From Bacillota bacterium (GTDB lineage: Bacteria; Bacillota; Clostridia; Peptostreptococcales; Anaerovoracaceae): a stretch of DNA of 64,000 bases. Made by a program: the position numbers and the translations under genes. The stretch spans positions 16,440 through 80,439 of the forward strand of contig JALEJU010000032.1 of assembly GCA_022769485.1 (NCBI GenBank). Direction: 5' to 3'. The notes under the pieces are model-generated. The model searched no databases. It was not told the origin of the DNA and saw only the letters and a list, made by a program, of their open reading frames with translations. Shown piece after piece: positions 60,210-60,594 of this stretch; the first letter of the stretch is position 1, and every line of letters begins with the position of its first letter.

Positions 60210-60238
60210 TTGACTCTTTTATCGTATACATTTATAAT
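60210..60238 (+). promoter_or_regulatory. near-consensus sigma-A promoter driving the structured leader and tRNA-Ser
   Basis: TTGACT (60210-60215), a 17-nt spacer, then TATAAT (60233-60238). Confidence 0.7.
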
Positions 60239-60254
60239 ATTAAGGCATACTTTT

Positions 60255-60352
60255 GGAGATGTGCCGGAGCGGTAGCAACGAGCCGCCTTTGAAATCCATG
60301 GACGATGCGGCGGGGCGTCCCCGTGAAATCGTACGATTTCAGCGATATCTCC
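60255..60352 (+). ncRNA. cloverleaf-like tRNA-related element (not a canonical tRNA) within a ~210-nt leader
   Basis: An 8-bp closing stem, GGAGATGT pairing with ATATCTCC. A Ser-type D-arm-like GCCGGAGCGGTAGCAAC. A CCGCC/GGCGG stem encloses a 21-nt loop that starts TTTGAAA. The T-arm position is occupied by the perfect 18-nt palindrome TGAAATCGTACGATTTCA. There is no TTCRA loop and no CCA. Confidence 0.4.
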
Positions 60353-60466
60353 GGTTTGAAAGACTGAATATCAGTGAGTTCAGCCCTGTGGCTCCGCCGG
60401 GAAATTTCGGAAACGACGGTTGTTTATTTCCGGAGAGCGGCGGGAAATCAAGGCTTGAACATAGAT

Positions 60467-60554
60467 GGAGAGATGTCAGAGTGGTCGATCGTGCGGCACT
60501 CGAAATGCCGTGCCCTTTACCGGGCCCCGGGTTCGAATCCCGGTCTCTCCGCCA
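60467..60554 (+). tRNA. tRNA-Ser (anticodon CGA), CCA encoded
   Basis: Acceptor stem GGAGAGA/TCTCTCC. Anticodon stem CGGCA/TGCCG with loop CTCGAAA. A long variable arm. T-arm CCGGG-TTCGAAT-CCCGG. Discriminator G followed by CCA. Confidence 0.9.
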
Positions 60555-60556
60555 CA

Positions 60557-60594
60557 AAGCCCTTGAAAACGTTGAGTTTTCAAGGGCTTTTTTT
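60557..60594 (+). terminator. intrinsic terminator after tRNA-Ser
   Basis: AAGCCCTTGAAAA pairs with TTTTCAAGGGCTT, followed by TTTTT. Confidence 0.85.

Follow-up and report, generated by a model that had tools for sequence, protein, structure and literature searches.

Transcription unit and long leader of tRNA-Ser(CGA)

The stretch of DNA analysed here, hereafter the window, comprises 64,000 nucleotides (nt) of contig JALEJU010000032.1 (positions 16,440 to 80,439; assembly GCA_022769485.1) from a bacterium of the family Anaerovoracaceae (Clostridia). A tRNA-Ser(CGA) gene at 60467–60554 is the single gene placed by ARAGORN and Rfam in the whole 64 kb. It is preceded by a promoter-like site, TTGACT-17-TATAAT at 60210–60238, which matches 11 of the 12 consensus positions, and the 222 nt between this site and the tRNA gene (60245–60466) form the leader that is the subject of this study. 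An earlier reading of the DNA without database searches, referred to below as the sequence-only reading, had recognised both the promoter and a leader ending at the 5' end of the tRNA, as borne out here, and had seen in the leader a cloverleaf-like pseudo-tRNA. Comparison with sister strains and with other genera points instead to a relic of an integrative element that splits a tRNA-Ser gene and supplies a tRNA-Ser of its own. The features of the locus are as follows.

60210–60238, + strand: sigma-70-type promoter TTGACT-17-TATAAT, 16 nt 5' of the orphan half, 11/12 consensus positions.
60255–60295, + strand: orphan tRNA-Ser 5' half with a UGA-type loop (TTTGAAA), which stops right after the anticodon loop, the same cut position as in strain L067 and in the genomes G084 and G015 of two other genera.
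60286–60294, + strand: core-equivalent CCTTTGAAA, aligned with the 9-bp core CACTCGAAA of G084.
60296–60466, + strand: putative decayed element arm (P'-arm remnant) of 171 nt; other arms are 138–151 nt long.
60319–60329, + strand: 11-nt repeat CSSCGKGAAAT, copy 1, resembling the anticodon stem/loop core GCCGCC-TTTGAAAT.
60324–60341, no strand: perfect 18-nt palindrome TGAAATCGTACGATTTCA, which aligns with the GAAATCCCTTGATTTTAC motif of other arms and is invariant in seven haplotypes.
60378–60399, + strand: GTTCAGCCC-TGTG-GCTCCGCCG, a putative degenerate counterpart of the arm direct repeat GTTCTCYCC-ATCA-GTTCTCYCC in integrase-linked arms.
60378–60460, + strand: long imperfect RNA hairpin, predicted in the minimum free energy (MFE) fold; no U-tract follows it, and it is not called a terminator.
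60395–60405, + strand: 11-nt repeat CSSCGKGAAAT, copy 2, repeat family D1.
60438–60448, + strand: 11-nt repeat CSSCGKGAAAT, copy 3, repeat family D1.
60467–60554, + strand: intact tRNA-Ser(CGA), the sole CGA isoacceptor in the genome; 0/88 differences from strain L060.
60556–60590, + strand: intrinsic terminator of 15 bp; strains diverge completely just past the tRNA 3' end or past this terminator.

Both promoter hexamers are invariant across all strain contigs. Neither a second promoter-like site nor a terminator-like site is found between the promoter and the tRNA, suggesting that tRNA-Ser(CGA) depends on a promoter about 230 nt upstream of it.

The leader contains GGAGATGT (60255–60262) and ATATCTCC (60345–60352), which pair in the MFE fold as the 8-bp stem drawn in the sequence-only reading, and the 18-nt palindrome described there is indeed perfect. 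The recurrence of GAAAT that had also been noted is confirmed: GAAAT or ATTTC occurs seven times in the 222 nt, compared with a mean of 0.35 in shuffled sequences (0/5000 reach seven) and a genome-wide expectation of about 1.1, and the 11-mer CSSCGKGAAAT is present in three copies. A helix between CCGCC at 60283–60287 and GGCGG at 60309–60313 fared less well. These two sequences and TCCATGGA are all there, but the MFE fold lacks the helix, and in four of seven haplotypes the pair that closes its loop is broken. The leader is single copy in its own genome. An origin as a miniature inverted-repeat transposable element or insertion sequence was rejected because of the single copy and the lack of terminal inverted repeats, and a small protein was rejected because the sole open reading frames cross the tRNA or lie antisense to it.

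Orphan 5' half of a serine tRNA

Positions 60255–60297 share 31 of 43 nucleotides with the 5' half of the tRNA-Ser(UGA) encoded in the same genome, aligned end to end and without rearrangement. The alignment score of 18 compares with 10.5 ± 1.4 for shuffles and is reached by 0/300 shuffles and by 1/300 random genomic 43-mers; the second-best tRNA match is tRNA-Ser(CGA). The first 41–43 nt keep the acceptor 5' strand, the D-region and the anticodon-loop sequences typical of a class II serine tRNA. The whole 98 nt closed by the 8-bp stem score 20, so that the remaining 55 nt add almost nothing and the tRNA resemblance ends at the anticodon loop ...TTTGAAAT (60295).

In agreement with this, no cloverleaf is detected. 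ARAGORN calls no tRNA in the leader, only the real tRNA-Ser(CGA), and the Rfam tRNA model RF00005 gives no match in 60245–60360 even at E <= 10 with truncated matches allowed; membership of RF00005 was taken as a cloverleaf with a T-loop at the 29-bit gathering score or as an ARAGORN call. A GGTTCGAATCC-like T-loop is not found in the leader. Compared with tRNA pseudogenes and tRNA-like structures (RF00005, clan CL00001), the leader shares only its first 41–43 nt and has neither a T-arm nor a recognisable cloverleaf. A scan of the whole region and of sub-stretches with all 4227 models of Rfam 15, at the gathering score and at E <= 10, yields no leader match, and every listed match falls on the real tRNA, its terminator or its close flank; in this respect the earlier statement that the leader belongs to no known RNA class holds. 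The cloverleaf-like pseudo-tRNA is not supported, since only 60255–60297 is significantly tRNA-like. Among the three origins offered in the sequence-only reading, a decayed tRNA comes nearest, in that a tRNA 5' half is present, although it is not a whole decayed cloverleaf.

The genome, designated G000, has a normal tRNA-Ser(UGA) and a normal tRNA-Ser(GCU) on contig C35, and therefore no odd serine tRNA is needed. An intron-bearing tRNA, an allo-tRNA and tRNA-Sec were rejected for the leader because of the missing T-loop and the normal tRNA-Ser(UGA) elsewhere. ARAGORN finds 42 tRNA genes in the 42 contigs of G000 and none for tRNA-Ile, tRNA-Tyr, tRNA-Thr(UGU), tRNA-Ala(UGC) and tRNA-Ser(GGA), which probably lie in unassembled rRNA or tRNA operons.

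Split tRNA-Ser genes in a sister strain and in other genera

Twenty-five contigs of the same species from other samples were recovered via the neighbouring SLH-domain protein; exact look-ups of the SLH protein and of the histidine kinase of the window returned no record. The leader is present in all same-species contigs that reach the region. The tRNA-Ser(CGA) gene is unchanged in every strain contig that spans it whole, although other contigs break off or diverge within it. Its 3' flank exists in at least four wholly different versions (window, L060, L079 and L073). A histidine kinase gene and a response regulator gene lie just past the tRNA terminator in the window, genes for HTH_17 excisionase-like, HIRAN-domain and DUF6809 proteins in L060, and a Phage_integrase gene convergent on the tRNA in L079. 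This complete divergence of the 3' flank among strains marks tRNA-Ser(CGA) as an integration hot spot.

Strain L067, whose leader haplotype is that of the window, carries an integration at this locus. The present tRNA-Ser(CGA) is cut right after the anticodon loop, ...GGCACTCGAAAT, and past the cut follow a foreign arm of 139 nt, a second, complete tRNA-Ser(CGA) of different sequence (GGAGACGTATCGAAG...), a terminator and an L079-like flank. The host tRNA is not reconstructed at the junction. The sequence past the foreign tRNA is 96% identical to the integrase-flanking region of L079, and this 4% difference compares with a species core difference of about 1%. The L067 layout is that of the window one level further, namely an orphan 5' half ending in GAAAT, an arm of 140–170 nt and a complete tRNA-Ser(CGA), and L067 carries two such orphan 5' halves stacked on each other. 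At the far end of the L067 element, ACTCGAAAT followed by GCCGTGCCCTTTACC...CTCTCCGCCA is predicted.

The arm of L067 has clear homologues in two other genera, G084 and G015. Each shows a promoter-like site, the strongest one locally, after which come an orphan tRNA-Ser 5' half, an arm of 138–151 nt, a complete tRNA-Ser(CGA) with its terminator, and a tyrosine integrase gene that runs in the opposite direction. ARAGORN calls no tRNA on either orphan half. The integrase gene is an open frame of 408 amino acids in G084, 73% identical to the L079 integrase, and a truncated remnant in G015. The orphan half of G015 has a UGA-type loop (GGCTTGAAAT) before a CGA tRNA, as in the window.

Another contig of G084 carries an orphan tRNA-Ser 3' half starting in the anticodon loop. 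The left and right attachment sites (attL and attR) of G084 have only the 9-bp core CACTCGAAA in common, and ARAGORN calls no tRNA at either junction. The 9-mer GTTCTCTCC is present in four copies before the orphan 3' half (attR) and in two copies in the left arm. Joining of the two halves through the 9-bp core yields a canonical 89-nt tRNA-Ser(CGA) in ARAGORN, indicating that the element splits tRNA-Ser and supplies its own copy. The integrase element of G084 thus occupies a tRNA-Ser anticodon loop without restoring the gene, and its own tRNA copy lies about 150 nt from the junction. In G015, no orphan 3' half is found within about 40 kb upstream and about 60 kb downstream of the tRNA. The copy on the element side is the only intact tRNA-Ser(CGA) detected in G084 and in G000. 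In the window, collinear tRNA similarity stops at the nucleotide at which the integrase crossover lies in the L067, G084 and G015 junctions.

In three contigs from independent samples (L083, L084 and L085), unrelated sequence begins exactly at the tRNA start, ATAGATGG|GGAGTACCTGATGG..., and the contigs end 50 nt later. This junction could be another insertion at the 5' boundary of the tRNA or an assembly-graph junction.

Comparison of the window arm with element arms

The 171 nt between the orphan half and the tRNA of the window were compared with the arms of the integrated elements. A profile built from three units, each consisting of an orphan half, an arm and a tRNA, matches 60255–60380 with E = 8e-8 when only a 601-nt region of the window is searched, and the alignment continues past the tRNA half into the arm. 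Local alignment of the window arm with the L067 arm gives a score of 37, which is reached by 0/300 dinucleotide shuffles and by 3/1000 random genomic segments. The score of 33 with the G084 arm is reached by 1/300 shuffles and by 30/1000 random segments, and the score of 16 with the G015 arm is not significant against shuffles or random segments.

The window arm is collinear with the L067 and G084 arms. The palindrome region is aligned with GAAATCCCTTGATTTTAC, ACTGAATAT with ACTTAATAT, and the GTTCAGCCC-TGTG-GCTCCGCCG repeat with GTTCTCCCC-ATCA-GTTCTCCCC; just before the tRNA, CTTGAACATAGAT is aligned with GTTGAGATAAATAC. The G084 repeats are perfect, those of the window arm degenerate. GTTC-type repeats are located where the arm-type repeats of intact elements lie. 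Homology of the window arm to the element arms is thus probable but not certain. The main argument is the architecture: the cut position, the orientation and the spacing are the same, and the process has been caught at the same locus.

The hairpin motif CCGAAAYCCCTTGATTTTAYTGGGKTTYCGG of the L067 and G084 arms is also found by itself in five other genomes of the family (L091, L092, L093, L095 and L096), with no tRNA closer than about 1.5 kb in either direction. In L090 (G157), CCGAAAYCCCTTGATTTTAYTGGGKTTYCGG is accompanied by the GTTCTCCCC-ATCA-GTTCTCCCC repeat but not by a tRNA-Ser, and this locus may be the phage-type attachment site (attP) of a free or differently targeted relative.

The exact 18-mer TGAAATCGTACGATTTCA occurs in 23 species genomes. 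About six of these occurrences seem to be chance matches in coding DNA, and the other 17 are the tip of longer perfect hairpins, most of them followed by T-runs in the manner of terminators. Most of the 17 are from Oscillospiraceae (Faecousia and Evtepia). Many of the hairpins immediately follow a tRNA gene or a partial tRNA-Met 3' half resembling an att site, and one comes after a tRNA-Lys in Hymenobacter. They were rejected as homologues of the leader and regarded as unrelated terminator hairpins.

Plausible origin of the leader

These observations lead to the hypothesis, held here with considerable confidence, that the leader is the fossil left junction (attL) of a tRNA-replacing integrative element. 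A tyrosine-integrase element would have entered a tRNA-Ser gene behind the promoter by recombining through an anticodon-loop core of about 9 bp, with CCTTTGAAA as the presumed crossover site in the window. The host 5' half (60255–60295) would have remained joined to the promoter, and the element arm (60296–60466) and the element's own tRNA-Ser(CGA) (60467–60554) would have been placed directly behind it, so that the promoter is probably that of the host tRNA, captured by the element. The window arm would accordingly descend from such an element, and the tRNA-Ser(CGA) of the window would have been delivered by it. The integrase and the rest of the element may later have been lost or overwritten by other elements at the hot spot, while the arm decayed.

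Transcription from the captured promoter would now run through orphan half and arm, giving a 5' leader of about 220 nt. RNase P cleaves tRNA precursors at the mature tRNA 5' end. Cleavage at 60466/60467 would free the leader, which would then be discarded and probably has no function of its own. The palindrome, the GAAAT repeats and the GTTC-type repeats are most likely worn binding sites of the recombinase or of accessory proteins, acting in DNA and not as RNA motifs. The 11-mers resemble GCCGCC-TTTGAAAT, and the GAAAT repeats may be DNA-level copies of the recombination core.

Several points weigh against this origin. The homology between the arms is weak in view of the random genomic segments that score as well (3/1000 for L067 and 30/1000 for G084) and of the lack of any significant score with G015, and a hidden Markov model of the arms only gives no match to the window arm in nhmmer. 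No integrase belonging to the old event is found near the locus (contig C20) or elsewhere in the 42-contig G000 assembly, and neither is an orphan 3' half. In L079, the related integrase follows straight after an intact tRNA of the window type and there is no second scar, a layout for which the hypothesis does not account. The 8-bp pairing of GGAGATGT with ATATCTCC must be a coincidence or a by-product of arm repeats: ATATCTCC resembles the TCTCC-containing arm repeats, and such a likeness might, as a speculation, produce complementarity to GGAGA without a cloverleaf. The strain comparison described below comprises only seven haplotypes, a small sample.

A different explanation of the same 98 nt is that a tandem tRNA-Ser gene degenerated in place, its T-arm becoming the palindrome and 14 nt being inserted in its anticodon arm, with no mobile element involved. 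Such a duplicate would be dispensable, as a working tRNA-Ser(UGA) exists elsewhere; the 8-bp terminal pairing survives and is in the MFE fold, and a global MAFFT alignment roughly matches GGGGCG with the variable arm of tRNA-Ser(UGA), the palindrome with its T-arm and the 3' strand with its acceptor strand. However, the 3' 55 nt lift the score only from 18 to 20, neither a T-loop remnant nor a truncated tRNA-model match is found, and the similarity stops at the very nucleotide at which proven integrations cut tRNA-Ser genes. Decay in place also accounts neither for the 114 nt that separate 60353 from the tRNA nor for the resemblance to element arms, and is therefore considered unlikely.

Distribution and polymorphism of the leader

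The fossil-junction hypothesis treats the leader as debris, and its distribution and polymorphism bear on whether it could be a functional RNA. Six related genera have a tRNA-Ser(CGA) of the same type, 91–97% identical, without a long leader. A promoter-like site lies 16–21 nt upstream of the tRNA in five of them, and in the sixth (G024) the tRNA follows the stop codon of a gene by about 80 nt. The DNA upstream of these tRNA genes shows no similarity to the leader beyond that of shuffles, and a 10-nt match, GCTCCGCCGG, upstream of the tRNA in G024 was dismissed as chance. A search of 60 relatives with the leader returns only tRNA matches. A 400-genome sample of the family gives only short matches at chance level, and none of the five best, which were checked, adjoins a tRNA; a 400-genome sample of the order gives one chance match inside coding DNA. 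No leader homologue is found in phage and plasmid records. Exact-pattern scans of viral contigs returned 0 matches three times, and those of metagenome contigs returned 0 and then three chance matches of a 21-mer in unrelated sequence. Across these searches, the leader appears restricted to one species.

Comparison of the window with strain L060 shows 7 differences in the 222 nt of the leader (3.2%), 10 among the 565 fourfold-degenerate sites of four flanking genes (1.8%) and none in the 88 nt of the tRNA (0%). The seven leader haplotypes contain 11 variable sites, all of them transitions. Three pairs predicted in the fold are disrupted in some strains, and no pair is altered on both sides. 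Variation is absent from the outer stem, from the 18-nt palindrome and from the paired bases of the long hairpin (60378–60460), whose three polymorphic sites all fall at unpaired positions. As judged from these sequences, the polymorphism of the leader shows drift rather than a conserved structure.

It has been suggested that the leader, or its first 98 nt, is a functional structured RNA, such as a tRNA mimic, a decoy or a protein-binding RNA freed by RNase P. The strong promoter, the genuine GAAAT enrichment, the invariance of the stem, palindrome and hairpin pairs among strains, and a stable predicted fold of -81 kcal/mol (z = -2.6, only modestly better than shuffles) are what such an RNA would lead one to expect. 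The promoter is accounted for as the tRNA's own, however, and the leader is found in one species only and matches no Rfam family. The density of substitutions is at least that of fourfold sites, no compensatory change is seen, and predicted pairs are broken in several haplotypes. A test of conservation and covariation in related genomes, as called for by the sequence-only reading, thus comes out negative: the tRNA mimic or protein-binding leader proposed there finds no support in conservation outside the species or in covariation, and the polymorphism looks neutral. Such a function is very unlikely.

There is an even slimmer chance that the leader, once left behind, has been co-opted, so that RNase P releases it as a stable species of about 220 nt; with its tRNA-Ser-like half and GAAAU-rich hairpins it could bind a protein (such as seryl-tRNA synthetase (SerRS), a tRNA-modifying enzyme or a nuclease), or it might tune the maturation of the only tRNA-Ser(CGA). 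Least probable of all is that the leader is a still-active attL of a resident downstream element with its integrase and attR beyond the contig end or on another contig: the contig does end about 4.5 kb past the tRNA, four other tyrosine recombinase genes lie on other G000 contigs and L079 has a related integrase directly behind the same tRNA, but in every complete example the integrase is immediately past the tRNA terminator, where the window has the histidine kinase and the response regulator, the window arm repeats are degenerate against the perfect G084 repeats, and the 3' flank varies among strains while the leader is common to all.

Relation to known tRNA-targeting elements

Integration that destroys a tRNA gene has been described as tRNA-dependent lysogeny in actinobacteriophages (Fionnbharth, the LeBron group, Gaia and others; Guerrero-Bustamante & Hatfull, mBio 2024; PMC10865867). 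A tyrosine integrase acts on a bacterial attachment site (attB) inside a tRNA gene, the core is only 8–17 bp long, the host tRNA is not reconstructed, and a phage tRNA of the same isotype complements the loss (PMC10865867). The elements of G084, G015 and L067 show the three sequence-level hallmarks of this system. A complete tRNA-Ser(CGA) lies 138–151 nt past the junction in these three and 171 nt past it in the window, and a short core without rebuilding of the tRNA is seen in G084 and L067 and is presumed for the window. Unlike the published cases, the hosts are gut Clostridia known as metagenome-assembled genomes, the target is tRNA-Ser, and the window holds a decayed remnant only, without an integrase. 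In Fionnbharth, the phage tRNA lies elsewhere in the phage genome and has its own demonstrated promoter (PMC10865867), whereas the replacement tRNA described here lies 138–171 nt from the junction and is co-oriented with the split gene. Being co-oriented and directly past the junction, it inherits the host tRNA promoter.

In classical islands and prophages in tRNA genes (Islander type), the 3' part of the tRNA is contiguous with the core (30–45 bp or more), the gene is rebuilt, and an orphan 3' fragment is left at the far end (PMC4383910). The elements described here resemble them in the tRNA gene target, the displaced gene fragment at the island end, the integrase next to the tRNA and the repeat-bearing arms, but differ in that the gene is not rebuilt and that the fragment is a 5' half upstream of a working tRNA.

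These comparisons of sequences indicate that the strategy of splitting a tRNA gene and supplying one's own, as published for actinobacteriophages, would also operate in gut Clostridia at tRNA-Ser, and the window most likely holds a decayed junction of this known kind of element and not a new RNA. As mobile-element debris, the leader does not merit annotation as a gene. Orphan 5' halves accumulate with each further integration, in the manner of tree rings, so that long leaders before tRNA genes become readable as an integration history. In such genomes, the tRNA-Ser(CGA) in use may have arrived with an element instead of being the ancestral gene. Finders of tRNA fragments that are restricted to 3' fragments will miss such islands.

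In L011 (G043, from another family of the order), a good match to the 3' half of its own tRNA-Ser(CGA) (score 20) was also noted within 1.4 kb downstream of that gene. This fragment looks like the classical attR type, unlike the 5'-half scars.

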